From: an uncultured Acidobacteriota bacterium
Lineage (GTDB): Bacteria; Acidobacteriota; JAQAZP01
Reading direction: 5' to 3'
NCBI GenBank assembly: GCA_963836075.1
Contig: CAWIIB010000009.1
Span: 192,001-256,000, forward strand
Length of the DNA stretch: 64,000 nucleotides
Position numbers and translations under genes: made by a program. Under the pieces are notes generated by a model, which made no database searches, was not told the origin of the DNA, and saw only the letters and a program-made list of their open reading frames with translations. Numbering within the stretch: the stretch's first letter is position 1; each line of letters starts with the position of its first letter. Of the stretch, positions 14,980-57,190 are shown piece by piece.

Positions 14980-16818
14980 ATGAGACCATCCGCCCAGTGC
15001 GTGTTGCTCACCTTCGCCCTGTCGCTCTCCTCCGCCGCCGGCGCAGGTTCGCTGCACCCCGGCCTGGAGAACTACCTGTCGGGCCTGCCTGCCCACCGGG
15101 TGGAGATGGTGATCGTGCGCCTCGCCGACCAGGCCGATATCCGTTCGCTCAACAGCCAGTTGAAACAGGAGAAGGCCACGCTGGCCCGACGCCACCGCGA
15201 GGTGGTCGAACACCTGCGAGGGACCGCTGAAGCCACCCAGGGCCGGTTGGTCGCCTACCTCGAGCAGCGATTCCTCGCCGGCGAGGTGCGCGGCTTCCGC
15301 CGCTTCTGGATTGACAACATGGTGGGCGTCGAGGCCACCGTGAGGGAGATCCGAGAGATCGCCCGCCGGCCCGACGTGGAGATGGTCTACATCGACTACA
15401 TCATCGAGCCGATCGAGCCGGAGAAGATCGAAGGGCCTAAGACGCTGGAGGGCCCGGGGCGGCAGGACGGCGACGCCGCGCGGACCGTTGAGCCGGGCAT
15501 CTCCGCGATCAGGGCGCCCGAGGCCTGGGCCCTGGGCTACACAGGCGCCGGCCGGCTGATCGCCAACATGGACACCGGCGTGGACGGCAGCCACGAGGCG
15601 CTGGCCTCCCGCTGGCGCGGGCTCGGCGAGCCGGCTGCGGAGTGCTGGTTCGACCCGGTGACCTCCACCACCTTCCCCTTCGACTCCGGTTCCCACGGTA
15701 CGCACACCATGGGTACCAGCTGCGGCCACACCGCTTCAAACGAGATCGGCGTGGCCCGGGACGCGCAGTGGATCGCCGCCGCTGTGATCAACCGGGTGGA
15801 CATCCCGACGACAATGACCGATGCGGTGGCCGCCTTCCAGTGGTTCGCCGACCCGGACGGCGACCCGGGGTCCATTGACGACGTGCCCGACGCGGTGGGC
15901 AACTCCTGGGGCATCAGCCCGATCTACCACGGGTCGTATATCACCGGTCCCTGTGACGAGACCTTCTGGGCGGTGATGGACAACTGCGAGGCCGCCGGCT
16001 GCGCGGTGATCTTCTCCGCCGGCGGCGGGGGGCCCGGCGCCTCCACGCTCAGCACCCCGGCCGACCGGGCGGACAGCCCGTACAATGCCTTCGCCGTGGG
16101 CGCGGTGGACGCGACCTATTCCGGCTTCCCCTACCCCGTGGCCGGCTTCTCCAGCCGCGGCCCCGGCTGCAACGACCGGATCAAGCCCGAGGTGGTGGCG
16201 CCGGGCGTCGCCGTGCGCAGCTCGGTGCCGGGCAACGGCTACTCCGTGTACAGCGGCACCTCGATGGCCACGCCGCACGTCACCGGCTCCATCGCCGTGC
16301 TGCGCCAGGTCGACCCCAACCTGGACGTGGAAACGATGAAGGAGATCCTGCTCGCCACCGCCGTGGACCTCGGCCCTGCCGGGGAGGACAACGCATACGG
16401 CATGGGGATCATCGACCTCGAAGCGGCGGTGCTTGCCGCCGCCCAGGCCACCGGGACCATTGCGGTGGGCATCAACTGCCTGCCGGACAGCGGCACCCTG
16501 CCCTTCGGCACCCAGATCACCGTCTCCCTGGACAACCTGGTGGGCGACCCGCGCAGGGTTTCGGCCCGGCTGGCGCTGACCCTGGCCGGCGGCGCCCATT
16601 TCGGCAGCTTCCGCTCGGGGTATGCCAACCTTCCACCCCACGGAAACCATACCGCCCAGTGGAACCAGTATCTCCCGGCGATGGGCCCCCTGGCGGGGCC
16701 CAACGTCTTCACCCTCACCGGCCACGACGTGACGCCGGCGCCTTACAACCAGCCGCCCTACGCGCCCTCCGGCGACTGCGACGCCGGCAGCGCCACGGTG
16801 ACCGGCATCGCTCCGTAG
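14980..16818 (+). CDS. Secreted S8 (subtilisin/bacillopeptidase F-like) serine protease with C-terminal NQPP domain
   Basis: Signal peptide, I9-like prodomain, DTGVD / HGTHTMG / GTSMATPH triad; last ~120 aa is the shared C-terminal domain. Confidence 0.9.
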
Positions 16819-16838
16819 ATACATTCTCGTCCATACCC

Positions 16839-17522: not shown

Positions 17523-18710
17523 TCAAGGAGCCATGGCGGTTACCGTGCACGCGTCAGCGGCGGTGTCGCCCGAAGGCGGGTAGGGCGGCTGATTGAACGG
17601 TGACGGGGTGACGTCCTCGGCCATCAGCTCGAACTGGTTGTCCCCGATCACCGAGCCGAGCGCCGGTATGGTAACCGGGAACATGGTGTCGTAGCTGCCG
17701 CCGGCTGCGATGTTGGTGGACCCGGCCCTCCAGTTCAGGAACTGGCTGCCCGCCGCCAGGCTGATGTCGATCCGGGCGGCCACCCGGCGGACCTGCTGGT
17801 CGTACAGGTTGTCCAGCGCCACGGTCATCTGCGTGGTGAACGGGACGGTACCCGTGGCGGGCGAGCAGGAGAGGCTCGCACCGATGAGCGCGGCGGTGCC
17901 GCCGCAGGGCACGTTGCCGAGCCGCCAGAGGACACCACCCGTCCCCGCTACCCAGGCCTCACCGGCGTCGCAGCGGAGCCCGACACCGCTGATGGAGGAC
18001 ACCTCGGTGGGGAGCGCGTGCAGCTGGACGAAGTCGCCCTCCGGCGTGAACTCGCCCATGCCGTCCTCGGAGCTGCTGACGAGGAAAAGGTTGCCCGTCG
18101 CGGTCGACACGTCGATGTCGCCGTAGTACACGCTGAAGGTGGCCGTGGTCTGGAAGGTCGACAGCACGGCGCCCGTGACCGGGTCGATCTCCGCCACCCG
18201 GTTCTCGTCGTCGGTGCCGGGCACGTTGTCCTGGACGAGGAAGAATGTGCCACGGAGGGGGTGGTATGCGCCGCCCACCACGTGGCTGATGCCGAACTCG
18301 GTGACGAGCGTGGCGAGGACGTCGCCGGTGACCGTGTCCAGGGCGTAGATCTCCGCCACGTCCGTCTCGCCGTTGATGAACAGCAGCGATCCGGCGGGGA
18401 CGGCGCTGTCGCCCATGATGAACGCCTCGGGCGCCACATCCAGGTCCACGTCGTTGGCCGACTCTCCCGGGCGGGCGATGGAGGTGAGGTATGTGCCGTC
18501 CGGAGCGTAGCCGTGCACCAGGTCGCCGCCGCAGCCGTACGCCCAGACGGTCTCGGCGGTCTGGCCGGCCGCAACACTGCATAGGCTGCTGACCTCCGCA
18601 GGGTTGAAGCTGTCCAGGACGGTGATTTGCGCTGATGCGGGGATGGTCAAAACGGCGGTTGCGAGAACCAGGCCGAGGGCCAGGGTGAAACGGGCTCGAT
18701 GACGGGTCAT
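17523..18710 (-). CDS. Secreted protein with probable beta-propeller domain and C-terminal NQPP domain
   Basis: GAGGAG RBS, signal peptide ending ASA-Q, beta-rich acidic domain; ends NWRAG..DVTPSPFNQPPYPPSGD..CTV. Confidence 0.8.
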   Translation of the reverse strand: MTRHRARFTLALGLVLATAVLTIPASAQITVLDSFNPAEVSSLCSVAAGQTAETVWAYGCGGDLVHGYAPDGTYLTSIARPGESANDVDLDVAPEAFIMGDSAVPAGSLLFINGETDVAEIYALDTVTGDVLATLVTEFGISHVVGGAYHPLRGTFFLVQDNVPGTDDENRVAEIDPVTGAVLSTFQTTATFSVYYGDIDVSTATGNLFLVSSSEDGMGEFTPEGDFVQLHALPTEVSSISGVGLRCDAGEAWVAGTGGVLWRLGNVPCGGTAALIGASLSCSPATGTVPFTTQMTVALDNLYDQQVRRVAARIDISLAAGSQFLNWRAGSTNIAAGGSYDTMFPVTIPALGSVIGDNQFELMAEDVTPSPFNQPPYPPSGDTAADACTVTAMAP

Positions 18711-19374: not shown

Positions 19375-21003
19375 CTAATTAAATGAGGCGGTGACCGTGC
19401 AATGAGCCGAATCGGTATCGCCCGACGGCGGGTAGGGAGGCTGGTTGTACGGGCTGGCGGTGACGTCCGCACAGTGCAGGGCGAAGACGGTCTCGCCCAC
19501 CAGCGTTCCCACGGCCGGAAAAACCTGAACCCAGGAGGTTGACCAGGTCTCCTCGGGCTGGAGATTGAGATACCCGGCCCGCCAGTTGCTGAAATGCTGG
19601 CCGCCGGCGAGGAAAAGGTCGATCCGACCGGCCACGGTGCGAATCTGGTCCTTATAGTTGCTGCTGATGGTCACCTCCATCCGGCTGGTGAAGGGCAGGG
19701 TGCCGGACGAGGGTGTGCAGGCCATGTAGGCGCCCACCGATTTCCAGCCTGAGCCTGACAAAGGGTAGTGATAGCCGACATCCGCGACCCAGCGGTCACC
19801 CACCCCATCCGTTCGAGAGGTTCCCTCGATAACTGGGGCCACCGGGTTGCCGGCATCGACACAGGGGCTGTCCGCGGCTTGCCCGGCGGCAATCTGGCTG
19901 AGGTAGTAAGCGCCGGCGGGCCCGGTGACATAGAGCGGATCGGCGGAGAAATTTCCCTGCCCCGGATAACCCGAGCCGCAGCACCAGGTGATGTCGAAAG
20001 TGCCGTGCACGCTCTCCCAGTAGTTGCTGGTGAAGATGGTGTGATGCACCACTCCCGACCCATACACTCCGCCCCCGTTGGAGTCGGCAATGTTCTGGTC
20101 AATGGTGCAAAAGGAGATCACCACCGGGGCGCTGCAGTGGATGGCTCCACCGTCGGTCTGCGCGATGTTGTAGAAGATCAGGTTGTTACAGATCTGGGCG
20201 GCCGGGCCGTCACACCAGATCCCCCCTCCACGGTATGCATGGTTGGCGTACACCTGATTGCCGCTGATCTGCGGAGCCCCCGACCCGGCACAGCCGATGG
20301 CGCCGCCGCTATGCCCGCTGCCGTTGTCGATGAACAGGTTGCCGCTGATGGTGGGAGAGGCGTCAATGGTGTAAAGACCTCCCCCGAACCAGGCCCCGTT
20401 TCGTTCGAACGTATTGCCGAGGACCTCGGGGGAGGAGGCGACGCAGACCACACCCCCGCCGTCACCGGTCTCGAGGCCGTCGGCCACGTTGTCGTGGAAG
20501 GTGTTCGCTTCAATCAGCGGTGCCGCCCCGCCCAGGCAGCAGATCCCGCCGCCGTCCTCCAGGGCGAGGTTATCCTCGATCACGTTCCCGCGGATGGTGG
20601 GGGAAGCGCCGTCACAGAGGATGGCCCCGCCGTTGAGCACGAACCCCCCGGTGATGCCGAAACCTTCCACAACCGCATCGCGACCCTCGCCGCTGAGGAA
20701 CCGGAGCGCGCGGTGGCGGTCGGCGTCGCTGCCCTGGCTGTGAATGATACAGGCGGCAGGCCCGTTCTCGGAGATCAGCGTGATCGCCCTGCCGCCAAAG
20801 TCGAGGTCGCGATTGCCGTCGCCGGTCCAGGTTCCGTCGGCCACCAGCACCGTGTCACCCGGGGCGGCGGCATCGATTCCAGCCTGGATGGTGGGATGCT
20901 CCGCCGGGACCCTGATCACCGCGGCCGGGGAAGGCTGTGCACCGAATCCGAGCGAAAAAAGAATAACCACGGCAAGCGTCAGGGTGATGGCATTCGTTTT
21001 CAT
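19375..21003 (-). CDS. Secreted right-handed parallel beta-helix (GGA/GGG-I repeat) protein with C-terminal NQPP domain
   Basis: Signal peptide; VPAEHPTIQAGIDAA; repeated N-x-A..GGGI; YYLSQIAAGQAADSPCVDAG; shared C-terminal domain. Confidence 0.85.
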   Translation of the reverse strand: MKTNAITLTLAVVILFSLGFGAQPSPAAVIRVPAEHPTIQAGIDAAAPGDTVLVADGTWTGDGNRDLDFGGRAITLISENGPAACIIHSQGSDADRHRALRFLSGEGRDAVVEGFGITGGFVLNGGAILCDGASPTIRGNVIEDNLALEDGGGICCLGGAAPLIEANTFHDNVADGLETGDGGGVVCVASSPEVLGNTFERNGAWFGGGLYTIDASPTISGNLFIDNGSGHSGGAIGCAGSGAPQISGNQVYANHAYRGGGIWCDGPAAQICNNLIFYNIAQTDGGAIHCSAPVVISFCTIDQNIADSNGGGVYGSGVVHHTIFTSNYWESVHGTFDITWCCGSGYPGQGNFSADPLYVTGPAGAYYLSQIAAGQAADSPCVDAGNPVAPVIEGTSRTDGVGDRWVADVGYHYPLSGSGWKSVGAYMACTPSSGTLPFTSRMEVTISSNYKDQIRTVAGRIDLFLAGGQHFSNWRAGYLNLQPEETWSTSWVQVFPAVGTLVGETVFALHCADVTASPYNQPPYPPSGDTDSAHCTVTASFN

Positions 21004-28676: not shown

Positions 28677-31600
28677 ATGATCACGAAAAGATTCGCATTA
28701 CTTATGATGATTCTCATCCTGGCGCTGGCGCCCACCGTCGCCCCGGCCCAGCAGACCTTCACCGAGGACTTCAGCACCACGACCTACATGGATGCGTTCA
28801 ACACCACCGCCGACTGGAACACCACAGACGGCGAGCTGAAGCTCTTTCCGTTCGTAATCACCCTCGCCGGGTCTTATGACACTGCCGGTGAAGCCTGGGA
28901 CATGGTGCTGTCGGGCAATCACGCTTTTGTGGCCGATTACTCATCCGGTCTTCAGATTGTGGACATCAGCGATCTGGCCAATCCCGTCCTTGCCGGCAAC
29001 TACGACACATCAGGCCAGGTGAGAGGCCTAGCCGTTTCAGGGGACCATGCCTTCCTGGCCGACGGGTCCCCAGGCCTGCTGGTAGTCGACATCAGCGATC
29101 CGACGAATCCCACCCTGGCCGGAAGCTACAACACAGCGGACAACGCCTTTGATGTCGTGGTGTCCGGTGACCACGCCTTCGTGGCTGATCGTCTATCCGG
29201 TCTGCAGATTATCGATATCAGTGATCCAACGACCCCCTCGCTTATTGGCAGCTATGACACATCCGGCTCTGCCTATGGAGTGGCCGTTTCCGGTGACCTC
29301 GCCTTTGTGGCTGACATGTCATCTGGTCTGCAGGTGATCGACGTCAGCGATCCCACCACCCCCGTGCTGGCCGGCAGCTATACCACACCATCGTTGGCCC
29401 GGGATGTGGAGGTCTCCGGAAATTATGCCTACGTTGCCGATGGGGCCTCCGGCCTGCAGGTAGTCGATATCAGCGATCCGGCTAATCCCGTGCTTGCCGG
29501 TAGCGGTGACACGCCAGACAATGCCCAGGATCTGGTGATATCTGGTGATCGCGCATTCGTGGCCGATGGAGATACAGGCCTGCTGATATTCGATATCACC
29601 GATCCCACCAGCCCCTCACTTGCCACTGAATACGACACTTCAGGCAGCGCCTCTGGCGTGGCGGTGGCGGGCAACCATGCCTTTGTGGCGGACGGAAATA
29701 CCGGCCTCCAGGTGATCAGGATCAGCCAACCCACGAGCCCCATGCTCGCCGGCAGCTATGAAACGCCAGACCTTGCCTTAGGCGTGGCGGTATCGGGCGA
29801 TCACGCTTTCGTGGCCGACCAGATCTCCGGCCTGCAGGTAATTGACATCAGCAATCCCACCATCCCCACCATCACCGGCAGCTACGACACTCCAGGCTAT
29901 GCACATAGCGTGGCGGTGTCGGGTGACCACGCCTTCGTGGCGGACAATAATTCCGTGCAGGTGATTGACATCAGTGATCCTACCATCCCCGTGCTCGCCG
30001 GCAGCTACGACACACCGAGCACAGTCCGTGGCGTGGCGGTGGCGGGCGATCACGCCTTTGTGACAAGCTACTATTCCGGCCTGCAGGTGATCGACATCAG
30101 CGACCCGACGAACCCCACGCTGTCCGGCAGCTATGCCACATCAAGCTTTGCACGTAACCTGGCGGTGTCGGGTAATCACGCCTTCGTGGGAGACGCCTAT
30201 TCCGGCCTCCAGGTGATCAACATCAGCGATCCGACAAACCCCACACTGGCCGGCAGCTATGACACACCGAGCGATGCAAGAGGCGTGGCGGTGGCGGGCG
30301 ATTACGCCTTCGTTACTGACATAGACTCCGGCCTGTTGGTGATCGACATCAGCGATCCTACCAACCCCGTGCTGGCCGGCAGCTATGATACACCGGGCTC
30401 CTCAGCATATGGCGTGACGGTATCGGGCGATCACGCGTTTGTGGTGGACTTCATTTCCGGCTTGCAGGTGATCGACATCAGTGATCCCGCGAACCCTACA
30501 CTGGCCGGCACCCTTGACATGTCAGACGGTGCCAGGAGCGTGGCGGTGTCTGGCGACCACGCCTTCGTGGCGGGCTACAATTTCGGCCTTCAGGTGATAC
30601 AGGTAAGGCAAAGCGAGGTCGATCAATCGCAGAACATTGGTCAGTCACTGGCGATGGACGGGACGTCGGACGCCATCATTCGCGCTCGCCTCACCAGCAC
30701 GGAGACCGGCGGGTTGGGCTGGGATCTGAGCGCTGACGCGGGGACAGACTGGACGGCCGTCACCTCAGACGGTTCCTGGACCCGGGTCGCGCCCACCGGG
30801 ACGGATCTCCACTGGCGCTCGACGCACACCTTTGCCGGGCCTGGCATAAACCCCACGGTCTCGGAATTGACTATCGACTGGCTCAATGAGTTCGGGCCAA
30901 TCAATTCGGTCACCGATGTGCCTGACGATCAAGGGGGTTGGGTGCGCATCGACTTCACCCGCTCCGGCTACGACTTCGCCGACGAGGCCAGCCTGCCGGT
31001 GGTCGGCTACAACATCTACCGCCGTGTTGATGGAGCTGCGCTGACAACCCTGATCGGGGATGCCGAGTCTCTTGAAGCGGATACAGGGTCAATGCACACA
31101 GCGGGCAAAAGCCTCCCCTATCCCCTGCCGGGCATGAAGATCACTCGCCTCGGGGACCGGATCTTCGTCAACGCGTCGGGGGCCACAACCGACCGGGCAG
31201 GCACGTTTCCACCCGGCACCTGGGAGATCATGACCTACGTGGCGGCGACCCAGTCGGACACCTACCAGGTGAGCGTACCCACCCTCGCCGGCACTACCAC
31301 CTACCTGGTGACCACCCACACCACCACACCCTCGGAATGGTTCGTCAGCCCCACCGCCAGCGGCGCCTCGGTGGACAACATCGCCCCGGCGGTGCCGATG
31401 AACCTCCTCTTCAGCGGACCTGACGTTTTGAGTTGGGACGAAGCGCCCGAACCGGACTTCGGCTACCACACGGTCTATGGCTCGGAGAACCCGGTCTTTG
31501 ATCCGTCGGCAACCCTGATCGGCTACACCATCGCCCAGACCTATGACGTGTCGGGGTCGGTCGCCAGCTATTACCACCTGACCACCTCGGACCATTCGGA

Positions 31601-45073: not shown

Positions 45074-48000
45074 CTAGTTTCGCAGCCCACCCACCTTGAC
45101 CCCGTGGCTCACCTCGGTGGAGCCGTAAGCATAAAAGTCCACACCATCAAGGGCGGTGAGCGTCTGGCCGTCGTAGTTCCAGCCCCGCACCCGGGGGAGG
45201 TGGGACTCGCCCGGCCCGGCCCCGGTGATGATCTCGTCGATGCCGTCATCGTCCAGGTCGCCGCAGGAGACGTTGGCTCCCCACTGGGTGTAGCTGTAGG
45301 CAAAGAAGCTCACCGCCGGGATCGACTGGGCCGAGCCGGTCCCGTCCCAGTTGAAAGCCCTGACGTGGGGGCCGAATACCGCACCCGGCCCGGCACCGGT
45401 GACCATCTCGTCGATGCCGTCACCGTCGATGTCGCCGCAGGCAACGTTGACCCCGAACTTGAGAGTGCCGTAGGCGAAGAAGGAGACCCCGGGGATGGAC
45501 GAGGCGCCCCCGCCGTCGCAGTTCCAGCCCCGGACGTGGGGGCCGTACACCGCGCCCGGTCCGGCGCCGGTGACGATCTCGTCGTAACCGTCGCCGTCGA
45601 TGTCGCCGCAGCTGACGTTGACGCCCCACTTGGGCGTGCCGTAGGCGAAGTAGGAAATCCCGGGGATCGGTGCGGGCACACCCGACCCGTCCCAGTTCCA
45701 GCCCCGCACATGGGGGCCGAACACTGCGCCGGGGCCGGCGCCGGTGACGATCTCGTCAAAGCCGTCGTTGTCCAGGTCACCGGCACAAACGTTGACCCCG
45801 TACTTCAGGGTGCCGTAGGCGAAGAATGAAACCCCGGGCAACGGGGTGCCATCGTGCTGGAACCCCCGCACGTGGGGGCCGAAGACCGGCCCGGGACCGG
45901 CCCCGGTGAGCACCTCGGGCTCGGGCGTGCCGTCCAGCTCGGCCAGGGCCACGTTGACCCCCCAGCGGTCCACGCCATAGGCCGACCACTCGGTGTAGCT
46001 GCGGCCGCCGTCACCGGGGAAGTATCGCACCAGGGTGGGGTTGAACTCACCCGGCCCCGGACCGGTGACCAGCAGGCCGGAGGAAGATAAATCGGCAGCG
46101 TTGTTGTTGATGATATAGACTCGGGAGCCTCCAGTAACGATCGCCTCCGGAGCCTGATCCCCGTCCATATCTGCCACGGCCATATCGAACAGGGTACGGC
46201 CGGTGGTCCAGAGAAGCGGAGCACCGAAGCTCCCGTCACCTTCACCGGGAAGGACCATCAGATCATTGGTCGAGTAACTCAGGGCCAGCAGATCGGTATG
46301 ACCATCCATCGTTATATCCGCCGAAGAGAATCGCATGAGATATTCTTGATTTGACCCATAGGTCTCAGCCGTTCCGAACGTACCATCCCCGTTGTTCAGC
46401 AGGATCGAGCAATACCCACCCGAGAAGCTCCCGGTCGCAATGTCGAGGTCGCCATCATGGTCATGGTCATCCAGCGCCACACCGTAGGGATCGCTGGCAT
46501 CGTATCGCTGGGGCGCTGAAAAGCTGCCGTTGCCGTTATTCTTCAGCACCAGCATGTTGCCGCCATAGCCCTCGGGTTCATGTACCACTACGTCGAGGTC
46601 GCCGTCACTATCAAGATCTCCCAACGCTACATCGCTGGTCCAGTTTGTGGTTGTGAAGTATTGAGGCACGCCGAATGTTCCGTCACCATTGTTGAACAGT
46701 ATGCCCAGATTGTCCGTGCTCTGGTGGGCCACCGCAATGTCGGTATCGCCGTCTCCGTCCAGGTCGCCCAGAGCCGCAGCCACCGGCTCGTCTCCCACAC
46801 CGTAGTTCTCTGGCGAAAGCAGTGCACCGTCACCGGCATTGAGCATGATGGAGACCGAATCTCCTTCATAATCGATGATCAGGAGGTCACTGATTCCATC
46901 TCCACTCATATCGCCGGAGACGAAACGATAGGGGCTGACATCGGGCTCGAAGCTCAGCGGCTCCGAGAAGCCTCCCGGAAATTCATTGATGAAGACCTGG
47001 ATCAGTTCGGGACCGCCACCGGTATAGTATCCGACCACGAGATCGGCCAGGCCATCGCCGTTCATGTCCTCAACTGCGCACGGATAAGCCGGGTGGTCTT
47101 CGTGCGTCTCAACGCGCTGAGGACCACGAAAAGTGCCATCCCCCGCACCAGGGACGATTGCCACCTGCTCGTCAACATAGGAAGGGAGGAGCATCGCATC
47201 GGGATAGCCGTCACCATCCATGTCCTGGACAACGATCTGTGCGCCGTAAACGTTCCCGTCTTCGGGTTCTCCGAACGCACCGCTGCCGTCGTTGCGGTAG
47301 ACGTATATTCCCCAGCCGCCCACGAGATCGAGGTCGCCGTCCTCGTCGATATCGAAAAGACACCAGTCAGCGGGAGCCTCGCCGGGCAGTAAGAATGTCT
47401 CTTCGTCGACCGTGCCGTCACCGTTCCCCGCGAAAAAAGGAAGATCCCAGGTCGGGGCCAGCACGTCCAGATGGCCATCCCCGTTGACGTCGTCCACCAG
47501 CAGGTCCTCGGAGTAATGGTCGTCGGAGAGGGAGTGTCCCGTGCCGGGAGTGAAACCACCGCTGCCATTGTTGAGCAGGATCGAGAGATCCATATGGTAG
47601 GGCCCGATATAGTGGGTGTTCACCAGGTCGAGGTCCCCGTCCTCATCGAAGTCGCCACCGGCCACCACATGGACCTCATGCCCCAGGGCAGTTGCTGCGC
47701 CCAGGGAGAATGTGCCATCCCCCTGGCCGATGTAGAGACGCACGGAGTTGCCCTCGGTGGCGGCGATGTCGGTGGTGCCGTCGCCGGTGAAGTCGCCCGG
47801 CTCAGTGGACAGGAATTCATGACTGCTGGTGTAGGTCGCCCCCTGCGAAAAGGTGCCGTCGCCGTCCCCGATCAGCGACCTCAACTGGTGAACGTCGAAA
47901 TCCGGTTCGGTGCCGTCCAGGACCACGTCCGGATATGAATCGTCATCCAGACGCGTGACGTGCATTCTCGAATAGCCGGATCTGCTGCCCAACCCGGTGG

Positions 48001-48280
48001 CCACCGGCTCCGCGAACTCGCCGTTGCCGGTTCCAAGCCTGACCACCACGGCATCTTCTGTCTCCTGGTACCAGGAGACGAGACCCACCATATCGGCAAT
48101 CCCGTCATTGTTGACATCGTCCGTGCTGATCTCGAGCACTTCCATGCCATCCCCGAAATTGAACTGCCGTGCGGTGTCGAGGAGATACTCCGCGGCGCAG
48201 GGAACCGAAAAAATGTGGAATCCGGTCAGGAGGATGACCGGGATCAGTAAAGTTGGAATCCGGCAGCGGCTCATACGCAT
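45074..48280 (-). CDS. Secreted VCBS/FG-GAP repeat protein with C-terminal six-repeat propeller
   Basis: 1068 aa; signal peptide; many DxDxDG calcium-blade repeats; ends HGVKVGGLRN. Confidence 0.88.
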   Translation of the reverse strand: MRMSRCRIPTLLIPVILLTGFHIFSVPCAAEYLLDTARQFNFGDGMEVLEISTDDVNNDGIADMVGLVSWYQETEDAVVVRLGTGNGEFAEPVATGLGSRSGYSRMHVTRLDDDSYPDVVLDGTEPDFDVHQLRSLIGDGDGTFSQGATYTSSHEFLSTEPGDFTGDGTTDIAATEGNSVRLYIGQGDGTFSLGAATALGHEVHVVAGGDFDEDGDLDLVNTHYIGPYHMDLSILLNNGSGGFTPGTGHSLSDDHYSEDLLVDDVNGDGHLDVLAPTWDLPFFAGNGDGTVDEETFLLPGEAPADWCLFDIDEDGDLDLVGGWGIYVYRNDGSGAFGEPEDGNVYGAQIVVQDMDGDGYPDAMLLPSYVDEQVAIVPGAGDGTFRGPQRVETHEDHPAYPCAVEDMNGDGLADLVVGYYTGGGPELIQVFINEFPGGFSEPLSFEPDVSPYRFVSGDMSGDGISDLLIIDYEGDSVSIMLNAGDGALLSPENYGVGDEPVAAALGDLDGDGDTDIAVAHQSTDNLGILFNNGDGTFGVPQYFTTTNWTSDVALGDLDSDGDLDVVVHEPEGYGGNMLVLKNNGNGSFSAPQRYDASDPYGVALDDHDHDGDLDIATGSFSGGYCSILLNNGDGTFGTAETYGSNQEYLMRFSSADITMDGHTDLLALSYSTNDLMVLPGEGDGSFGAPLLWTTGRTLFDMAVADMDGDQAPEAIVTGGSRVYIINNNAADLSSSGLLVTGPGPGEFNPTLVRYFPGDGGRSYTEWSAYGVDRWGVNVALAELDGTPEPEVLTGAGPGPVFGPHVRGFQHDGTPLPGVSFFAYGTLKYGVNVCAGDLDNDGFDEIVTGAGPGAVFGPHVRGWNWDGSGVPAPIPGISYFAYGTPKWGVNVSCGDIDGDGYDEIVTGAGPGAVYGPHVRGWNCDGGGASSIPGVSFFAYGTLKFGVNVACGDIDGDGIDEMVTGAGPGAVFGPHVRAFNWDGTGSAQSIPAVSFFAYSYTQWGANVSCGDLDDDGIDEIITGAGPGESHLPRVRGWNYDGQTLTALDGVDFYAYGSTEVSHGVKVGGLRN

Positions 48281-48319: not shown

Positions 48320-51300
48320 TCAGTATCTCAGCCCACCCACCTTGACCCCGTGGGTCACTGTCGACGTGTCGTAAGCGTAGAAGTTGACACCACCCAGGGC
48401 GGTGAGCGCCAGGCCGTCGTAGTTCCACCCCCGCACCCGGGGCGGGTTATACCACGCGGGACCGGGACCGGTGATGATCTCGTCGATGCCGTCATTGTCC
48501 AGGTCGCCGCAGGAGACGTTGACCCCCTGCTGGCCGAAATCGTACGCAAAGAAGTTTACCGCCGGGATCGACTGAACCGCTCCGGACCCGTCCCAGTTCC
48601 AGGCCCGCACGTGGGGACCGAACACCGCACCCGGCCCGGCGCCGGTGACCATCTCGTCAATGCCGTCACCGTCGATGTCGCCGCAGCTGACGTTGACCCC
48701 GTACTTCAGAGTGCCGTAGGCGAAGAAGGAGACACCGGGGATGGACGAGGCGCCCCCGCCGTCGCAGTTCCAGCCCCGGACGTGGGGACCATACACCGCA
48801 CCCGGGCCCGCCCCGGTGACGATCTCGTCGAAGCCGTCGCCGTCGATGTCACCACAGCTGACATTGACCCCCCACTTGGGTGTGCCATAGGCAAAGTAGG
48901 AGATGCCGGGGATCGGCGTGGGAGTTCCCGACCCGTCCCAGTTCCAGGCCCGCACGTGGGGGCCGAAGACCGCGCCGGGTCCGGCGCCGGTGACGATCTC
49001 GTCAAAGCCGTCGTTGTCCAGGTCGCCGGTGCAGACGTTGACCCCGTACTTGTTGGTTCCGTAAGCCAGGAACGAGACCCCGGGCAGGGGCGTACCGTCG
49101 TGCTGGAACCCGCGGACGTGGGGACCGAAGACCGGCCCGGGCCCGGCGCCGGTGAGCACCTCGGGCTCGGGCGTACCGTCCAGCTCGCCCAGGGCCACGT
49201 TGACCCCCCAGCGGTCGATTCCATAGGCCGGCCACTCGGTGTAGGCCCTGCCCATGTTAAAGGGGAACAGACGCACCAGCGGAGGGTTCTCCTCACCGGC
49301 GCCGGGCCCGGTGACCAGCAGCCCGGTGGCCACAAGATCCACGGCGTTGTTGTTGATCAGGTGTATGCCGGGGTACACGGCCGCCAGAACGACTTCCTGA
49401 TCCCCGTCGCCGTCCACATCGCCAAAGGACCACATACTTATCGAGTCGCCGGTGGAAAAGCTTCCATGCAAGGTGAAGGAGCCATCCCCGTTGCCCAGAA
49501 CCAGCACCAGGTCGAGGCCGAGGTCATCGAGGAGCAGCAGGTCGGGGGCACCATCCAGATTGATGTCCGCTGAGGTGACGTTCTTGCTCCATCGGTGGCC
49601 CGAGTGGTAGGCAGCGGCACTGCCAAACGTGCCGCTCCCGCTGTTGAGCAGAACCGAGACGATGCCGCTGGAAATGCTTCCCGTGGCCAGGTCAACATCG
49701 CCGTCGCCATCGAAGTCGGCAGCAGCGATGCCCGACGGATCGGTGGCGTCATAGAGTTGGGGCGGAGAGAAACTTCCGTCACCGTTGTTTCTCAGCACCA
49801 CCACGTTCCCGCCTTCCGATTCCGGTTGATCCATGGCCGCATCGAGGTCGCTGTCGCCGTCCAGATCAATCAGAATGATATCGGTGGCCCGCCGGGTGGC
49901 CTCGTGGAATACCGGTGCAGCAAGCGTCCCGTCACCATCGTTGAGCATGATGCCCAGTTGATTTTCAGTCCGGTAGGCCACGGCCGCATCGAGGTCGCCG
50001 TCACCGTCAAGATCGCCCAGGGCAACGGCATTTTGATTGAACACCGTATCGTAGATCTGGCCGGTGGGAAACGTACCATCACCGGCATTGAGCAGGACTT
50101 CCAGACTGTGATTGTTTCCGTCGCGGACCAGAATATCGGTGAAACCGTCGCTGTCCAGGTCACCGGTGGTCAATCCCGTGGGGATCACGCCTGCATCGAA
50201 GCCCGCTGGTTCGGAGAACCCGCCCGGGTCCTGGTTGAGAAGAACCTGGATCGATTGGGGAGCAGACACGCCCGCAGCCACATCCGGATCACCGTCACCA
50301 TCCAGATCGTCCATGGCCAGGCTGAGTTTGTCCCATTCCAGGTGGAGCAATTTTTCACAGTGGAAAGTGCCGTCCGGCCGTCCCAGCAGAACACAGGCAT
50401 ACTCCGAGGGGGAGATCATCAGGGCGTCAAGCACGTCGTCGCCATCCATGTCGGCCAGGGCCACGGAATATCCCCACCCGAAACAGCGCCGTGGCTCATC
50501 GAAAGTCCCGTCGCCATTGTTGAGCAGGACTTCATGTCCTCCATGGGCAACCAGGAGATCGAGGTCGCCGTCGGCATCGAGGTCGCCAACCTGCCACCCC
50601 CCGATGGGAGTGACCAGCAAGCTGGACGCGCCGAAGCTGCCTTCACCGTTGCCGAAGCAGAGATAGAGCCTCCCCTGCTCCCCCCGGTAGAGGAGATCGA
50701 GTTGCCCGTCGCCATCCATGTCGTGCAGCCCCATGGATCCGGCGATCTCCACCAGGGGGTAGGGCCGGATGGAGACGAACGTGCCGCTGCCGTCATTGTG
50801 CAGGACGAATGACCGTTCAGCCGCCACACCCTGCTCGCTTCCCACCACCAGGTCGAGATCTCCGTCCCCGTCAAGATCGCCGGAAGCGGCGCAGTTGATT
50901 GAGTGGAGCAGCGCGGTGGACTGGCCCTGGTCAAGGGTGCCGTCCCCCTGCCCGACCAGCAGCCGCACCGACTGGGGCTGGCTGATGATGACATCCACCA
51001 CGCCATCCCCGGTGAAGTCGGCAGGCTCGATGACCCGGTCCGTGCCGGGCTCAAAAACATCTCCGGCGGAAAAACGGCCGTCGCCGATGCCGAGGAATAT
51101 CTTGAGCGCCGTGGTGCTGCCGGTTTTCGAGAGCAGCAGGTCCGGGTAAGGATCATCATTGAGCAGGGCGAAGCGGAAATCCCCGTTCAGCTCACCGACC
51201 AGAGTGATGACCGGTTCAGCGAACTCGCCCTCACCCGTTCCCAGGCGGGTTACAATGGCATCGGTTGCATCTTCATACCGTTCGCAGAGGCCCACCATAT

Positions 51301-51490
51301 CCTCGATCCCGTCAGCGTTCAGATCCGCCGTGTCCAGGTCGTCCGCCCGCTCCCCGCCCAGATGGAAATGTCGGGCCGTGTCGAAAAGATATTCGGCGCT
51401 ACAGGGAACCGGGAGGAGGTGGAGTCCGGCGAGGAAGAGGACCACCAGGAGAGGCCATATTCCGCGACCATGAAGGAGTATCATCACCAA
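48320..51490 (-). CDS. Secreted VCBS/FG-GAP repeat protein with C-terminal six-repeat propeller
   Basis: 1056 aa; same architecture; ends HGVKVGGLRY. Confidence 0.88.
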   Translation of the reverse strand: MVMILLHGRGIWPLLVVLFLAGLHLLPVPCSAEYLFDTARHFHLGGERADDLDTADLNADGIEDMVGLCERYEDATDAIVTRLGTGEGEFAEPVITLVGELNGDFRFALLNDDPYPDLLLSKTGSTTALKIFLGIGDGRFSAGDVFEPGTDRVIEPADFTGDGVVDVIISQPQSVRLLVGQGDGTLDQGQSTALLHSINCAASGDLDGDGDLDLVVGSEQGVAAERSFVLHNDGSGTFVSIRPYPLVEIAGSMGLHDMDGDGQLDLLYRGEQGRLYLCFGNGEGSFGASSLLVTPIGGWQVGDLDADGDLDLLVAHGGHEVLLNNGDGTFDEPRRCFGWGYSVALADMDGDDVLDALMISPSEYACVLLGRPDGTFHCEKLLHLEWDKLSLAMDDLDGDGDPDVAAGVSAPQSIQVLLNQDPGGFSEPAGFDAGVIPTGLTTGDLDSDGFTDILVRDGNNHSLEVLLNAGDGTFPTGQIYDTVFNQNAVALGDLDGDGDLDAAVAYRTENQLGIMLNDGDGTLAAPVFHEATRRATDIILIDLDGDSDLDAAMDQPESEGGNVVVLRNNGDGSFSPPQLYDATDPSGIAAADFDGDGDVDLATGSISSGIVSVLLNSGSGTFGSAAAYHSGHRWSKNVTSADINLDGAPDLLLLDDLGLDLVLVLGNGDGSFTLHGSFSTGDSISMWSFGDVDGDGDQEVVLAAVYPGIHLINNNAVDLVATGLLVTGPGAGEENPPLVRLFPFNMGRAYTEWPAYGIDRWGVNVALGELDGTPEPEVLTGAGPGPVFGPHVRGFQHDGTPLPGVSFLAYGTNKYGVNVCTGDLDNDGFDEIVTGAGPGAVFGPHVRAWNWDGSGTPTPIPGISYFAYGTPKWGVNVSCGDIDGDGFDEIVTGAGPGAVYGPHVRGWNCDGGGASSIPGVSFFAYGTLKYGVNVSCGDIDGDGIDEMVTGAGPGAVFGPHVRAWNWDGSGAVQSIPAVNFFAYDFGQQGVNVSCGDLDNDGIDEIITGPGPAWYNPPRVRGWNYDGLALTALGGVNFYAYDTSTVTHGVKVGGLRY

Positions 51491-51677: not shown

Positions 51678-54229
51678 TCAGGGGGATGTCGCCACCACCG
51701 TGCAGGCGTCGCTGTCGGTGTCGCCCGACGGTGCAAACGGCGGCTGGTTGTAGGGAGCAGGGGTCACATCCTCACCGATGATGGTGAAGACGTTGCTGCC
51801 CACCAGCGAGCCGAGGGCCGGCAGGCCCTGGTTCCAGAAGGTGCTGAACACCTCGCCGGAGCTGAGGTTGGTCCAGCCGGCCCGCCAGTTGGTGTACGGG
51901 GTGCCGTTGCCGATGACCACGTCGATCCGGCCGGCGGCCCGGCGGTTCTCTGTAGTCAGGTTGGCCAGCGATACCGCCATCTGGGTGGTGAAGGGCAGCA
52001 CGCCGCTGGCCGGGGTGCAGCCGATGGTGGTGGCCACCGTGTCGGTGGGAGTCACCGTGCCGCCGAGACCCCAGATCTCAACGTCGTCGATGTTCCAGCC
52101 GGAGAAGAGCCAGCTGGAATCGGTGGTGCCCATGGTCCAGCGCAGGTAGACGGTGGACTGTCCGTCGGCCACGGCGGAGATGTCGTATTCCACCTGGCTC
52201 CAGGAGGAATCGGTGATCTCTTCACCGTTCTCCCAGACCGTGGTCCAGGTGGAGCCGTTGTTGCTCACCCGCACGTAGGCATGGTCATAGGACGGCTGCT
52301 CCACGTTGAGGTAGCGCCAGAACTTCACCGAGACCGAGCTCAGCGACGAGCAGTCGATGGCGGTGCTGGTGAGGTGCGTCTCCGACATGCTGTTGGTGTA
52401 GTCGCCGGAGAGGTTGTAGCCGTACACGCTCGGGCCGGTGTAGCCGCTGGTGGGATCGGGGTTGCCGTACTCGCCGCCGCCGCCGGTGGGGGTCCCGTGG
52501 GCCCAGAGGCCCTGGGTGGTCCAGCCGGGGTTGCTGCTCAGGTCGTAACTGTAGATCAGGCCCGGCACTCCGACCTGCAGGCTCACCGCCCGGGTGGTGT
52601 CACCCTCGCCAGTGGTGTTGTTGGTGAAGGTGACCGTGTCGCTGTATCCGCCGTCAGCCAGGGAGCCGGCCCCGGAGTTGATCGAGACGGTGACCGTGGT
52701 GCTGCCGCCGCCGGGGATCGAGCCGCCGCCGGTGGAGAGGGTGACCCAGGAAGCAGTCTTGGTCGCGGTGAAATTGATGCTGCCGGCGTTGTTGTTCTCC
52801 ACGGTGTAGACCATGCTCGAGGGGGTGAACGGTCCGCCGCTCTGGCCTTCGGAATCAAGACCGCCGGCCGGGGTGACCCGCATGCCGGACGAGCCGGGGA
52901 TCAGGGTGTCGAGGGTGGTGGCGCCGCTGCCGATGGGGTCGAGCCAGTTGCTCAGGCGGGTGGAGTTGCTGCCGCCGCCGGTCCAGGAAGTGTAGAGCCG
53001 GCCGTACCAGTCGGCGGTCTGGCTGGTGCAGGAGGCGTAGCCGCCATGCAGCTGGCCAATGATGCGGTGGTTCGGGTCGTAGAGCGGCGAGCCGGAGGAA
53101 CCGGGCTCGGTGGTCCCGTCATCCCAGTCGGTGACCTTGATGTGGGTCGAGTTACCGGGCACGCTGTCGCCCAGGTAGCTGGTGATCGAGGTGGGATCGT
53201 TCTCGAAGCTGATCGCCTTCTCGTCGGTGCCCGGATGGTGGATCGCCACGGCGCTGGAGGTGGCGCTGTTGACACGGCTCCAGCCGGAGTAGGTCACGCC
53301 GAAGTCCGGGTCGGGCATCTCTTCCATTTCCACCAGACAGAAGTCGGAGGAGCTGTAGTCGGCACGGAAGATCACGCCGCTGTTGAAATCGCTCAGCGAT
53401 CCGCCGCTGAGGTCGCCGCAGTTGGGGCTCTCGTAAGTTCCAGTAGACCACCACCGACTGGTCGTTGCCGGTGGAGATCCCGCAATGGTAGGCGGTGAGG
53501 AAGTAAGGTGTCTCGTCCTCGGCGGTATTGTTGATCATCGCTCCCGGAGCAGTACCAGGTGCCGTTGATGGTGTAGACACCCGACGAGGGGATCTCGTCC
53601 CGCCAGTCGTCGCCTTCGGGGCAGATCACGTCGTTGTTGCAGCTTCCCTGCAGGATATCGAGGGTTTCGCCAAAGTAGCGGTAGCCGATGTTGACGGAAC
53701 CCAGCTCCAGTTCCAACCGGTCGAGGTATTTCTCGGGGACCGTCACTTCGATGATGATGTTGTCGCCCAGCACCACCGGGGTCCAGAGCTCGTTGGCCTG
53801 GTTGTTGTCGGCCGCGGTGAAGTCGCGGGAAACCACGTAGCTCTCATCAGCGGAGTAGAGCAGCAGCGAGCCGCCCTCGGGCATAACGTAGCGGGTGAAA
53901 CCGAGGTTGAGGGAGAGCGCGCCCAGCGACTCCACCCGCAGCCGCCAGAGCTTCATCCCCTCACCCAGGTCTTCCCAGGTGCCGTGGGTCGCCGGTGAAA
54001 CCTTGACTTCCTTGGGCACGGCGAACCGGGCCGGTTCTCCCATGGCTTCACGCTCCTCATCCTCCCAGGCCAGCAGCTCGATGTTCAGCGACGGAAACAC
54101 CACCGCATCAACAGACTCCAGATCCAGCACCGGGTGATTCGAGGTGACCGGAACGGCGGCCGCAGTGGGCAGGGCCAGCAGAGTCAAAAACGCACACAGA
54201 AATGTCCAGGAAATCAGCTTCACGCGCAT
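51678..54229 (-). CDS. Secreted lysyl endopeptidase-like S1 protease with Ig/BACON-like, jelly-roll and C-terminal NQPP domains; frameshifts near 53540 and 53432
   Basis: GGAGGAG RBS; CNNDVICPEG; TAYHC, DFCL and GSSGSP motifs across three ORFs. Confidence 0.85.
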
Positions 54230-54637
54230 CAATACTCCTCCCAAAAGGTAACCGGAACGTGTGGAGACAGCGGGAATCGGCGGGGATATCGCTCGTTAGA
54301 CTCCCTCAACTGACTGTGGTGGGCTCCTTTATGGCCATCGTGGCCGGGAGCCCTCACTCTCATACAACAACTGTAAACAATATAGGTTATGAGCGGTTTA
54401 AAATCAACACCAAGTTTATCTTTATCGTCCAAAGTGCTTGCACCAAAAGAACAAAACACCTATTATCAGTGCTTATAAAGGTCGACGGGTACGCTGGTTG
54501 AAAGCAGTTCGCATGCCCCGAACCGTTCATACCGGCCACGGACTCCATTCCAGGTGCCCGCCATTGCCATTCCTGGCGGGCAGACCCAGGTTATGTAAAG
54601 CCATCCTTGCCATTACGTGAGAAGGAGGAGAGTGAAG

Positions 54638-57190
54638 ATGTTGAAACGGATCGCAATCCTGACAGTAATAACGGCCCTGTGCTGCTGGCCCCTCTCGGCC
54701 CCGGCCGCACCGGTGGCGCCCGAAGGCGAACTGCTGGTCATGGTGGACGGGGGGAACCCCGATGCCGTCCGGATGCTGGACGGTCTGGGCGCACCGGTCT
54801 ACCACCGGGCCACTGGCCGTCTGCTGGCCGGCGTGGACAGCGCAGGTCTGGAAGTCCTGGGCGACAACGCCGTTCTGCTGGACCGCACGCCCTGGTCCGC
54901 GGGCACCAGCTACTACTGGATGATGATCCGTGACGGCAGGGACGCCGCCTTCCCCGCCGCCGCCGGTATCGAGCTGCTCTTCCGCGATGGCGGGGTGGCG
55001 CTGATCAAGGCCGGTCTCGACGAGGCCGAAAAACTCTCCATGGCCGGGCACGAGCTGGCCATGGTGACCCGCAGCCACAAGACGCTGGCCGCCCCCACAA
55101 AGAGCACCGCGCTCAGCGGCACCCGGGCCTTTGGCGGCGAGATCGACGACATGGTGGCCGACATCAACCAGCTGAGCTACACCAACAAACTACAGAACCT
55201 GGAAGATTTCGGTACCCGCTACTCCTACGCCCCGGAGAACGACGACGCCGGCGACTGGATCTACAACCAGTTCACCGGCTTTGGCCTGGACACCGAGCGC
55301 CACTGGTTCAGCATCGGCGGCAACCAGCGGATGAACGTGATCGCCACCCTGCCCGGCTACGTCTACCCCGACGAGGTGGTCTTCATCTGCGGCCACTTCG
55401 ACAGCACCTCCGAAGACCCCTACAACTCGGCCCCGGGCGCCGATGACAACGGCAGCGGCACCGCGGCCACCATCGAAGCGGCGCGGGTGCTCTCCAACTA
55501 CACCTTCGAGCGGACAATCAAGTTTGCCGCCTGGTCCGGCGAAGAGCAGGGCCTGGTGGGATCTAGCGCCTACGTGGACGACATCGCCGCCGCCGGGATG
55601 GACGTGGTGGCGGTCTACAACCTGGACATGATCGCCTACTCGGGCAACGACCCGGCCCCGCCGGACCTGGTGATCTACACCAATGGCAACTCCCTGCCGG
55701 TGGCCAACCTGCTCAGTGACGCCATCCTCTACTACGTGCCCGCCGAGGTGGAGCCGGTGATCGACACCAGCGCCCTCACCGCCAGCGACCACGCCTCTTT
55801 CTGGGACCACGGCTACCAGGCGATCCTGGGCATCGAGGACGAGGCCTGGGGCAGCGACTTCAGCCCGTACTACCACAGCACCAGCGACCTGGTGGTCAAC
55901 TGCGACCTGGCCTACGCCACCGCCTGCACCAAGGCCGGCGTGGCCGCGGTGGCCGAAACGGCAGTGCCCTTCAACCCCACCGGGATGCGGGTCACCCCCA
56001 CCACAAGCTTCTACACCGAGGGCCCCAACGGCGGGCCGTTCACTCCGCAGACCTTCGACTACACCCTGACCAACTACGAGAGCTACGCCATCACCTACAC
56101 GGTGACCGAGAGCACGGCCTGGCTCGACAGCAGCTCCACCGGCGGCACCCTGCCCGCCCTGGGCACGGCCACGGTGACCCTGTCGATCAACAGCACGGCC
56201 AACGGCCTGGCCGACGGCGGCTACACCGCTGACGTCGACTTCGTCAACACCACCAACCACGACGGTGACACCACCCGCACCGTGGAGTTGACGGTGGGCG
56301 TACCGGTGATGCAGCAGCAGTGGACCATGGACAGCAACCCCGGCTGGACCACTCAGGGCCTCTGGGCCTGGGGCCAGCCCACCGGCGGCGGCGGGCAGTA
56401 TGGCAACCCCGACCCCACCAGCGGCCACAGCGGCCCGAACGTCTACGGCTACAACCTCTCGGGCGACTACGAAAACTACCTCAACGAGACGCACCTCACG
56501 TCCAGCGCCATCGACTGCTCCACCCTGAATACGGTGATCCTCAAGTTCTGGCGCTACCTCAATGTCGAGCAGCCGGTCTACGACCACGCCTACGTCCGGG
56601 TGAGCAACGACGGCAGCAACTGGACCCAGGTCTGGACCAACACGGCCGAGATCACCGACTCGTCCTGGAGCCAGGTGGAATACGACATCTCCGCCGTGGC
56701 CGACGGCCAGTCGACGGTCTACCTCCGCTGGACCATGGGTGAGACCGATACCGCCTGGCAGTATTCGGGCTGGAACATCGACGACGTGGAGATCTGGGGC
56801 ATCGACGGCTCGTCCCAGCCCACCGACACGGTGCAGGTGGCCATCGGCTGCAGTCCGGACAACGGCGTGCTGCCCTTCACCACCCAGTTTGCGGTGTCGC
56901 TGTCCAACCTGACCACCGAGAACCGCCGGGCCGCCGGCCGGATCAACATGGTGATCGGCAACGGCACCCCGTACACCAACTGGCGCGCCGGCTGGACCAA
57001 CCTCAACGACGGCGAGACCTACAGCACTGTCTGGAACCAGAGCCTGCCGGCCCTCGGTTCGCTGGTGGGCGACAACGTCTTCACCCTCATCGGCGTGGAC
57101 GTCACCCCGGCGCCCTACAACCAGCCGCCATTCGCCCCGTCAGGCGACACCGACAGCGACGCCTGCACGGTGGTGGCGACAGCGAAGTAG
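54638..57190 (+). CDS. Secreted M28 aminopeptidase with Ig/BACON-like, jelly-roll and C-terminal NQPP domains
   Basis: GHFDS, PGADDNGSG, GEEQGL, NLDM, SDH and YYHS zinc-ligand motifs; AGGAGG RBS; signal peptide. Confidence 0.9.
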   Translation: MLKRIAILTVITALCCWPLSAPAAPVAPEGELLVMVDGGNPDAVRMLDGLGAPVYHRATGRLLAGVDSAGLEVLGDNAVLLDRTPWSAGTSYYWMMIRDGRDAAFPAAAGIELLFRDGGVALIKAGLDEAEKLSMAGHELAMVTRSHKTLAAPTKSTALSGTRAFGGEIDDMVADINQLSYTNKLQNLEDFGTRYSYAPENDDAGDWIYNQFTGFGLDTERHWFSIGGNQRMNVIATLPGYVYPDEVVFICGHFDSTSEDPYNSAPGADDNGSGTAATIEAARVLSNYTFERTIKFAAWSGEEQGLVGSSAYVDDIAAAGMDVVAVYNLDMIAYSGNDPAPPDLVIYTNGNSLPVANLLSDAILYYVPAEVEPVIDTSALTASDHASFWDHGYQAILGIEDEAWGSDFSPYYHSTSDLVVNCDLAYATACTKAGVAAVAETAVPFNPTGMRVTPTTSFYTEGPNGGPFTPQTFDYTLTNYESYAITYTVTESTAWLDSSSTGGTLPALGTATVTLSINSTANGLADGGYTADVDFVNTTNHDGDTTRTVELTVGVPVMQQQWTMDSNPGWTTQGLWAWGQPTGGGGQYGNPDPTSGHSGPNVYGYNLSGDYENYLNETHLTSSAIDCSTLNTVILKFWRYLNVEQPVYDHAYVRVSNDGSNWTQVWTNTAEITDSSWSQVEYDISAVADGQSTVYLRWTMGETDTAWQYSGWNIDDVEIWGIDGSSQPTDTVQVAIGCSPDNGVLPFTTQFAVSLSNLTTENRRAAGRINMVIGNGTPYTNWRAGWTNLNDGETYSTVWNQSLPALGSLVGDNVFTLIGVDVTPAPYNQPPFAPSGDTDSDACTVVATAK

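Follow-up and report, generated by a model that had tools for sequence, protein, structure and literature searches.

Here, we describe a domain of ~120 residues that closes seven exported proteins encoded on a 64,000-nucleotide stretch of DNA from an uncultured Acidobacteriota bacterium and that, as we infer, probably serves exported proteins as a portable C-terminal address tag specific to this lineage. This stretch, the window, corresponds to positions 192001-256000 of contig C9 of genome G000 (6.23 Mb, 10 contigs, 94.7% complete). An earlier note on the DNA had proposed that the genes ending at 16818, 17523, 19375, 32009, 35396, 51678 and 57190 share such a domain. Our translations and alignments agree with this, and all of the motifs quoted at the time (i.e., C-x-P-x-SG-x-LPF, RR-x-A-x-R, NWRAG, PALG, DVTPxPYNQPP[YF], GD and C-x-V) are present. 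The identity of the other six copies to the copy on an LVIVD-repeat protein amounts to 93, 53, 56, 50, 57 and 53%, and 28 columns of the alignment are invariant. The cargo parts of the seven carriers are mutually unrelated. Judged by eye, all seven carriers possess the signal-peptide-like N-terminus ascribed to them before, two of their genes being split by frameshifts. Matches of the seven copies within their own genome reach E-values of 1e-41 to 1e-62, which excludes chance as the origin of the shared domain.

A hidden Markov model (HMM) built from the seven copies was run on all stop-to-stop open reading frames (ORFs) of at least 60 residues in G000. It matched 223 ORFs, and 190 of these matches cover 100 or more of the 120 positions of the model, the remaining rows being fragments and insignificant matches. 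Within this near-full set, 183 copies finish no more than 6 residues from the stop. Among the other seven, three stop 7-10 residues short of it, two match in truncated form, with another 50-80 residues after them, and the last two are genuinely internal. One of these lies 184 residues upstream of a second, terminal copy in the same protein. Based on a rough codon-usage gene call, the domain is found on 191 of 4314 ORF-genes, i.e., on ~4% of the genes. A signal-peptide-like start was scored by a crude heuristic in 124 of the 183 carriers as compared with 218 of 600 control ORFs (Fisher p = 1e-13), showing that carriers are enriched for such starts. The 160 residues preceding 178 of the copies fall into 70 unrelated clusters with 47 singletons, and only 13 contain the choice-of-anchor-J-like module discussed below. 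Thus, the domain moves as an independent unit. The cargo comprises peptidases (S8, C25, M28, C1, M23), the glycoside hydrolases GH43 and GH32, PPAD, beta-helix, FG-GAP, PKD and LamG proteins and cytochromes c, as judged from a Pfam census of 67 of the 150 best representatives in the protein library described in the next paragraph. The gingipain family Peptidase_C25 is itself greatly expanded in G000 with 25 matches, several of which carry the tag.

The distribution of the domain is narrow. In a set of 41 genomes around G000, profile matches were confined to the three members of the genus (G000, G001 and G002), each with at least 109 scored matches (288, 182 and 158 first-look candidates, respectively). 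The same three genomes were the only ones matched in a phylum-wide sample of 401 genomes, in which 11 candidates were scored per genome; this corresponds to one of 227 genera and bears out the earlier claim that the domain is lineage-specific. The 41-genome tallies, and possibly the 401-genome tally, include the unpublished genome G025. A motif scan of the GTDB species genomes yielded 156 encoding stretches, all of them in two assemblies labelled 'Acidobacteriota bacterium' and 'uncultured bacterium'. Furthermore, a search of 1.84 billion representative proteins returned 498 matches at E <= 1e-3, of which 457 remain at E <= 1e-10; the family thus has a sharp boundary, with hardly any matches in a twilight zone. 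Among the best 150 of the 498 representatives, 146 have the domain at the C-terminus, eight contain two copies (seven of them in tandem) and three have it internally. The description of the domain as single and terminal therefore holds for 183 of the 190 near-full copies in the genome as well as for 146 of these 150 representatives. None of the source annotations of the library proteins has a name for the tail.

Conservation, predicted fold and database searches

The 183 terminal copies of the genome share a median pairwise identity of 48%, and 22 positions are conserved in at least 90% of these paralogues. Nine of the 22 positions (within 91-106) lie in the stretch D91-V-T-P-x-P-Y-N-Q-P-P-[YF]-P-P-x-G106-D. 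The terminal residue is a proline in 160 of the 183 copies, 110 of which end in 'AP', and the residue ahead of the domain is mostly threonine at the 25 junctions inspected. Two cysteines, C7 and C113, are both present in 126 copies and both missing in 27, with only one of them found in 30 (odds ratio 21). This co-occurrence is compatible with a disulfide linking the first strand of the domain to the last, and the pairing points to an oxidising compartment. The tails encoded in the window contain no transmembrane helix, PEP motif or basic tail.

An AlphaFold2 model computed from an alignment of 50 copies (predicted local distance difference test, pLDDT, 96.9; predicted template modelling score, pTM, 0.85) predicts an immunoglobulin (Ig)-like sandwich of eight strands, in keeping with the all-beta prediction made before. 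Residues 92-107 of the model form a loop without secondary structure, and the nine conserved positions named above lie in this loop or adjoin it. As deduced from the up-and-down order of the strands rather than from the coordinates, the N- and C-termini should lie at one end of the sandwich and this NQPP loop at the other. Foldseek and VIA-align retrieved only generic Ig-like, FnIII, MG and CARDB sandwiches. RbmA, whose PDB title describes it as a Vibrio biofilm scaffolding protein, supplies the best neighbour with its FnIII domain (template modelling (TM) score 0.73, Z 12.2, root mean square deviation 2.4 over 103 residues), followed by the Ig-like domain of AlkC (Z 11.0), the CARDB structure 3idu (Z 10.1) and transglutaminase and complement domains (Z about 10). 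These matches are unspecific, as 70 chains reach Z >= 8 and 1101 chains Z >= 5. The neighbours in the ESM Atlas are CARDB-named clusters scoring 0.85-0.89, which is under the guide value of 0.9 of that resource. Matches to CPE0147 hinted at an intramolecular Thr-Gln ester bond, an idea that we put aside given the low TM-score (0.46) and the lack of a conserved histidine in the copies.

The resemblance to RbmA raises the question of whether the domain is a ligand-binding module, similar to a carbohydrate-binding module (CBM) or an adhesin, that ties many enzymes to one shared polymer outside the cell (for example, its own exopolysaccharide or biofilm matrix, or a detrital substrate) and not to a dedicated receptor. 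CBM-like sandwiches are found next to CARDB among the fold neighbours, degradative enzymes are abundant in the cargo and tandem copies occur, all of which would suit such a module. We nevertheless judge this explanation improbable, as the fold matches are generic and the cargo also includes cytochromes, FG-GAP and beta-helix proteins. CBMs are not normally restricted to the extreme end of a protein, nor do they usually occur on 4% of a proteome. If the ligand were the surface glycan of the cell itself, the explanation would moreover overlap with the docking at the cell surface that is proposed below.

No known family accounts for the domain at the sequence level. A comparison of 50 copies with the sequences of PDB, Pfam (2025) and NCBIfam (June 2026) at E <= 10 gave nothing recurrent, and neither CARDB (PF07705) nor PPC (PF04151) was matched by these copies. 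None of eight products of the window, and none of the 50 copies at E <= 10, matched the type A domains of the type IX secretion system (T9SS; TIGR04183 and PF18962) or dockerins (PF00404 and NF041540). Alignment of the tag by hhalign with three T9SS type A tails on homologous cargo resulted in a probability of 0.3%. In the open-access papers searched, we found neither the motif 'PYNQPP' nor a paper mentioning the domain. The statement that it does not belong to a named family thus stands at permissive thresholds. The earlier note had named two observations that would refute its proposal, namely an HMM match to a characterised domain and frequent occurrence inside proteins or in cytoplasmic ones; we looked for both, and neither refuted it. 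We conclude that the family is missing from the Pfam and NCBIfam releases searched.

These searches also bear on the idea of a C-terminal propeptide or intramolecular chaperone that aids folding or keeps an enzyme inactive up to its export and is removed later. PPC domains are likewise C-terminal beta-sandwiches, and many of the carriers are peptidases. However, neither PF04151 nor any other family matched at E <= 10, and the domain is also found on many non-enzymes (i.e., beta-helix, FG-GAP and LamG proteins and cytochromes c). A cargo-specific chaperone would be expected to change along with the proteins it serves, whereas here one conserved domain serves 70 unrelated contexts, which renders a propeptide very improbable.

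The anchor slot and the search for a reader

The M28 and S1 proteins of the window share a module of 280 residues directly ahead of the tag, which ends in GWNIDDVEIWG and resembles choice-of-anchor J. The 'choice-of-anchor' name refers to surface proteins with alternative anchors (bioRxiv 10.1101/2023.03.06.531300). Homologues of the module are 43-87% identical, most of them 60-87%, and occur on C25, trypsin-like, M28, M4, C1, S8 and PPAD enzymes; their named sources include Thermoanaerobaculales, Phycisphaerae, Planctomycetota, CSSED10-310 and Sumerlaeota. We classified the tails that follow the module in the 120 distinct homologues listed. Our domain takes this place in 30 of them. The commonest alternative are dockerin-like Asp-rich repeats, present in at least 27 as counted with a crude motif that undercounts them. 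A tail of ~20 residues (F.D.FE.G...W) follows in 12 homologues, all on C25 peptidases and one of them (P0269) labelled Thermoanaerobaculales. Two further domains are unnamed: one of ~118 residues ending in ...STEKDLSATCP (5 of 120; P0227, P0228, P0234, P0253 and P0317) and one of ~125 residues ending in ...SNAQDLVLG[FWY] (3 of 120; P0225, P0229 and P0231). T9SS/FlgD_ig-type tails are found in three cases (P0294, P0302 and P0291), other short tails in four, and 36 tails were left unclassified. NCBIfam assigned the GC-type dockerin NF041540 to all three dockerin-type proteins tested (P0311, P0266 and P0249) and TIGR04183 to P0294. The tag was also aligned by hhalign with the two unnamed tails (the SATCP and SNAQDL types) on homologous cargo; probabilities of 0.2% and 0.3% mean that no superfamily link was detected. 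As homologous cargo ends in dockerins or T9SS domains elsewhere, the tag holds the slot of known sorting or anchoring modules. This position is the best functional clue and lends further, independent support to the suggestion of the earlier note that the domain may be a sorting or docking tag.

For the mechanism, we tentatively put forward surface retention by docking, a dockerin-like role played by an unrelated fold. The cargo would be exported via Sec by its N-terminal signal peptide, as suggested by inspection of the seven carriers and by the rough genome-wide scoring. In the periplasm, the tag would fold into the predicted eight-strand sandwich, its first and last strands presumably being joined by the disulfide to which the cysteine pattern points. 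The outer membrane might then be crossed by a general route, most simply by the secretin-based operon of the genome that resembles a type II secretion system (T2SS). On the outside, a common surface component, either a protein or a glycan, could bind the near-invariant Pro-rich loop DVTPxPYNQPP[YF]PPxGD. As a result, about 190 hydrolases, adhesin-like repeat proteins and cytochromes would be held on the cell surface.

The tag could instead be an outer-membrane translocation signal, comparable to that of a T9SS in a genome without T9SS, which would be read in the periplasm by a lineage-specific translocon or shuttle and perhaps be cleaved later. The strict position at the extreme C-terminus, the conserved last strand and the terminal proline would all be explained in this way. 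The proportion of tagged genes (~4%) is a load typical of T9SS cargo sets, and T9SS type A domains fill the same slot on homologous cargo elsewhere. T9SS C-terminal domains have an Ig-like sandwich fold, which the tag shares in general terms, and the T9SS cargo of Porphyromonas covers a similar spectrum of C25, PPAD and S8 proteins. The tag shows no sequence similarity to type A domains, however, and several components expected for such a system were not found. PorV (NF033710) gave no match in the genome, the control in Bacteroides thetaiotaomicron being positive. SprA (TIGR04189 and PF14349) was not matched in the genome either, with the control genomes silent too, and none of the six ORFs scanned out of 15 with at least 1500 residues is SprA-like. 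T9SS type A domains are lacking in G000 and were matched in one of the 41 surrounding genomes.

Two of the six large ORFs are of interest in their own right. L145 (G000:C9:2267510-2274076) and L146 (G000:C9:1011951-1018484) encode ~2180 residues each with an AsmA/TamB-type region, POTRA repeats and an Omp85 barrel, and look like TamB-TamA fusions.

An untagged C25 peptidase resembling PorU (L126:10241-12985:-; G000:C1:1027253-1029103) scored 201.9 bits with NF033707, for which the cut-off is 420. Its gene is adjoined by those of an S24/S26-like peptidase, a homologue of HprK-related kinase A and a radical SAM/SPASM-PqqD protein. The PorU-like protein has an orthologue in G001 and none in the tag-bearing G002, and homologues with 29-34% identity are found in 17 of 38 genomes of other families, all of them tagless. 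We therefore rejected it as a dedicated tag sortase, and its distribution speaks against a translocation system built around it.

Other known systems were also searched for in the genome. Exosortase (PF09721) is present in none of the three genomes of the genus versus 13 of the 38 genomes of other families in the phylum (G025 being one of the 13), and PEP-CTERM gave a single match in G000. The GC-type dockerin NF041540 was not matched in the genome, nor was Slam/DUF560 (PF04575), for which the control genomes were silent as well. Three secretin matches were obtained, one of them in a PilMNO-PilQ cluster. The gene of a lipoprotein-like secretin (L132:7994-10519:-; G000:C1:2169994-2172519) shares its operon with a pseudopilin gene and T2SS-type E and F genes. 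The secretin extends into an acidic low-complexity linker of ~110 residues and a C-terminal cohesin-like domain (PF00963, 6e-8). Such a tail is found on ORFs of ~730-960 residues in 24 of the 41 genomes, 21 of which are tagless. Given this wide occurrence in the phylum, mostly in tagless genomes, the cohesin-like tail is not specific to the tag, and we did not adopt it as the docking site. A complex prediction of the tail with the tag scored 0.00, which speaks neither for nor against binding. No expanded family of cohesin-like partners was seen in the genome.

The neighbourhoods of tagged genes, in an analysis biased by the use of neighbours only as queries, revealed neither general nor lineage-specific machinery, which is a further point against translocation by a dedicated system. 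Only TPR-CHAT proteins with an extracytoplasmic function (ECF) sigma factor stood out, all seven members being encoded no more than three genes from a tagged gene (L127:3867-7895:-, L128:965-5050:+, L129:1206-4514:- and four more in G000). The L127 and L128 members adjoin an ECF sigma factor and an uncharacterised protein of 261-265 residues. These cassettes look regulatory and appear to control particular tagged proteins.

Docking is ranked above translocation, which we regard as unlikely, on three grounds: no translocon candidate was found, the dockerin is the commonest alternative in the slot, and tandem copies exist, as is common among binding modules but not among translocation signals. 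Several observations weigh against docking. No binding partner, scaffold or anchor chemistry was found, and the gene neighbourhoods did not supply a general machinery. Since dockerins and T9SS domains share the slot, docking and translocation are inseparable by sequence alone. The near-constant end point and the terminal proline would fit a signal read at a free C-terminus no less well. Tandem copies are few, and since the scores of two copies are summed, proteins that have them are favoured in the list of the best 150 representatives. The placement of the loop away from the cargo in the predicted fold rests on strand order, not on coordinates. Finally, only 124 of the 183 carriers passed the signal-peptide heuristic; many of those that failed are short ORFs, which frameshifts have probably truncated.

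On a more speculative and rather doubtful level, the domain might belong to an undescribed sorting system, in which a lineage-specific receptor or translocon unlike T9SS, exosortase or cohesin-dockerin would read a disulfide-pinned tag via the NQPP loop on ~4% of the proteome. The tag would then be one of several that different uncultured lineages independently invented and placed on horizontally shared cargo modules.

Tag carriers of the window and neighbouring genes

The seven tag copies of the window are all defined by translation, alignment and own-genome matches, together with AlphaFold2 for copy 4. No model of Pfam or NCBIfam covers the tail of any of the seven carriers. Copy 1 (16456-16815, + strand) terminates an exported S8 subtilase (14980-16818, +; PF00082, 1.1e-40), the start of which was set at the methionine ahead of the signal-peptide-like stretch. 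The second cysteine is missing from this copy and SFRSG replaces NWRAG. The earlier note regarded it as the most divergent of the seven; by identity, the beta-helix copy (50%) diverges no less than the S8 copy (53%), yet the latter alone lacks both the second cysteine and NWRAG. Copy 2 (17526-17885, -) belongs to an exported protein of 395 residues (17523-18710, -), and copy 3 (19378-19737, -) to an exported right-handed beta-helix protein (19375-21003, -; PF13229, 7.8e-16).

Copy 4 (31647-32006, +), the first row of the alignment used for folding, is located on an exported LVIVD-repeat/choice-of-anchor B protein (28677-32009, +; PF08309, 2.3e-176; TIGR04312, 135.6 bits). A tandem paralogue (32062-35396, +; PF08309 and choice-of-anchor B by NCBIfam) bears copy 5 (35034-35393, +), which is 93% identical to copy 4. 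In the record, the gene of this paralogue is broken by a frameshift into ORFs 32062-34908 and 34863-35396.

Copy 6 (51681-52040, -) ends an exported protein (51678-54229, -) in which Pfam and NCBIfam indicate a trypsin-like peptidase, a BACON_2-like domain and the choice-of-anchor-J-like module. Its gene is also frameshifted and consists of ORFs 53393-54244, encoding the N-terminus with the signal peptide, and 51678-53375. Copy 7 (56828-57187, +) is carried by an exported M28 aminopeptidase (54617-57190, +; PF04389, 4e-35) with the same BACON_2-like and choice-of-anchor-J-like module. The choice-of-anchor J model NF038128 scored 28.4 bits on the M28 protein with a cut-off of 30 and was near its threshold on the S1 protein, too. 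Thus, the cargo types named in the earlier note were recovered by Pfam for the S8, beta-helix, both LVIVD and the M28 proteins. The S1 assignment corresponds to a sub-threshold match to Trypsin_2 (24 bits, cut-off 27.6), and the supposed propeller at 17523-18710 has no family in Pfam or NCBIfam.

SecA, encoded within 10670-13148 (+), is broken into at least two ORFs (11308-12219 and 12456-13148). This and the two frameshifted tag carriers suggest that the assembly contains indel errors. The window further encodes six FG-GAP repeat proteins without the tag on the minus strand (25009-27405, 38285-41032, 41814-42812, 45074-48280, 48320-51490 and 58787-61174), some of which are fused to trypsin-like or beta-helix domains. 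Those at 41814-42812, 45074-48280 and 48320-51490 have a common terminal FG-GAP module finishing in ...THGVKVGGLR[NY], and the other three have related Gly-rich tails. This module may represent a second recurrent C-terminal unit of the genome.

Comparison with known systems

C-terminal tags decide where exoenzymes are located, and the known ones (i.e., T9SS domains, sortase and exosortase signals and dockerins) each led to the discovery of a dedicated machinery. The kind of feature described here, a C-terminal tag domain on diverse exoproteins, is accordingly already known; new are the fold family, its restriction to one lineage and the lack of a known reader. About 190 proteins per genome bear this uncatalogued folded tag in a lineage for which no known machinery was found. 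In different lineages, one and the same cargo module precedes at least five different tails, three of them unnamed, which suggests that tags are commonly swapped on shared cargo and that there are several undescribed systems for sorting or anchoring. Two things limit the reach of these findings: the distribution is narrow (one of 227 sampled genera), and a culture is lacking. An HMM for the domain would immediately mark out the surface-bound and secreted proteins of these sediment-type Acidobacteriota and close a gap in Pfam and NCBIfam.

CARDB (PF07705) and the FnIII and MG Ig-like sandwiches, among them RbmA, are similar to the tag in overall fold without a match at the sequence level. Such domains are internal and arranged in repeats, whereas the tag is strictly terminal and single. 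PEP-CTERM/exosortase likewise relies on a C-terminal signal found on many exported proteins of one lineage. The tag differs from it by having neither the transmembrane helix nor the PEP motif nor the basic tail, and exosortase is missing from the three genomes of the genus. The GC-type dockerin (NF041540) is a C-terminal module on diverse exoenzymes as well; it fills the same slot and acts by non-covalent docking, which is what we propose for the tag. Dockerins are short calcium-binding helical repeats. The tag is unrelated to them in fold and sequence, all-beta in its model and twice as long, and NF041540 was not found in the genome.

The T9SS type A domain (TIGR04183 and PF18962 Por_Secre_tail, with its FlgD_ig variants) is, like the tag, a single terminal beta-sandwich on unrelated exoproteins with signal peptides. 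It is present at a similar load per genome and likewise follows the shared cargo module in P0294, P0302 and P0291. The tag is set apart from it by the lack of an HMM match, by the hhalign probability of 0.3% and by its length of ~120 residues as opposed to a model of 72-75 positions. The genome that encodes the tag yielded no match to PorV, to type A domains or, with silent controls, to SprA. Moreover, the tag paralogues resemble each other unusually closely (median identity 48%) and are distinguished from type A domains by their cysteine pair and their Pro-rich loop.

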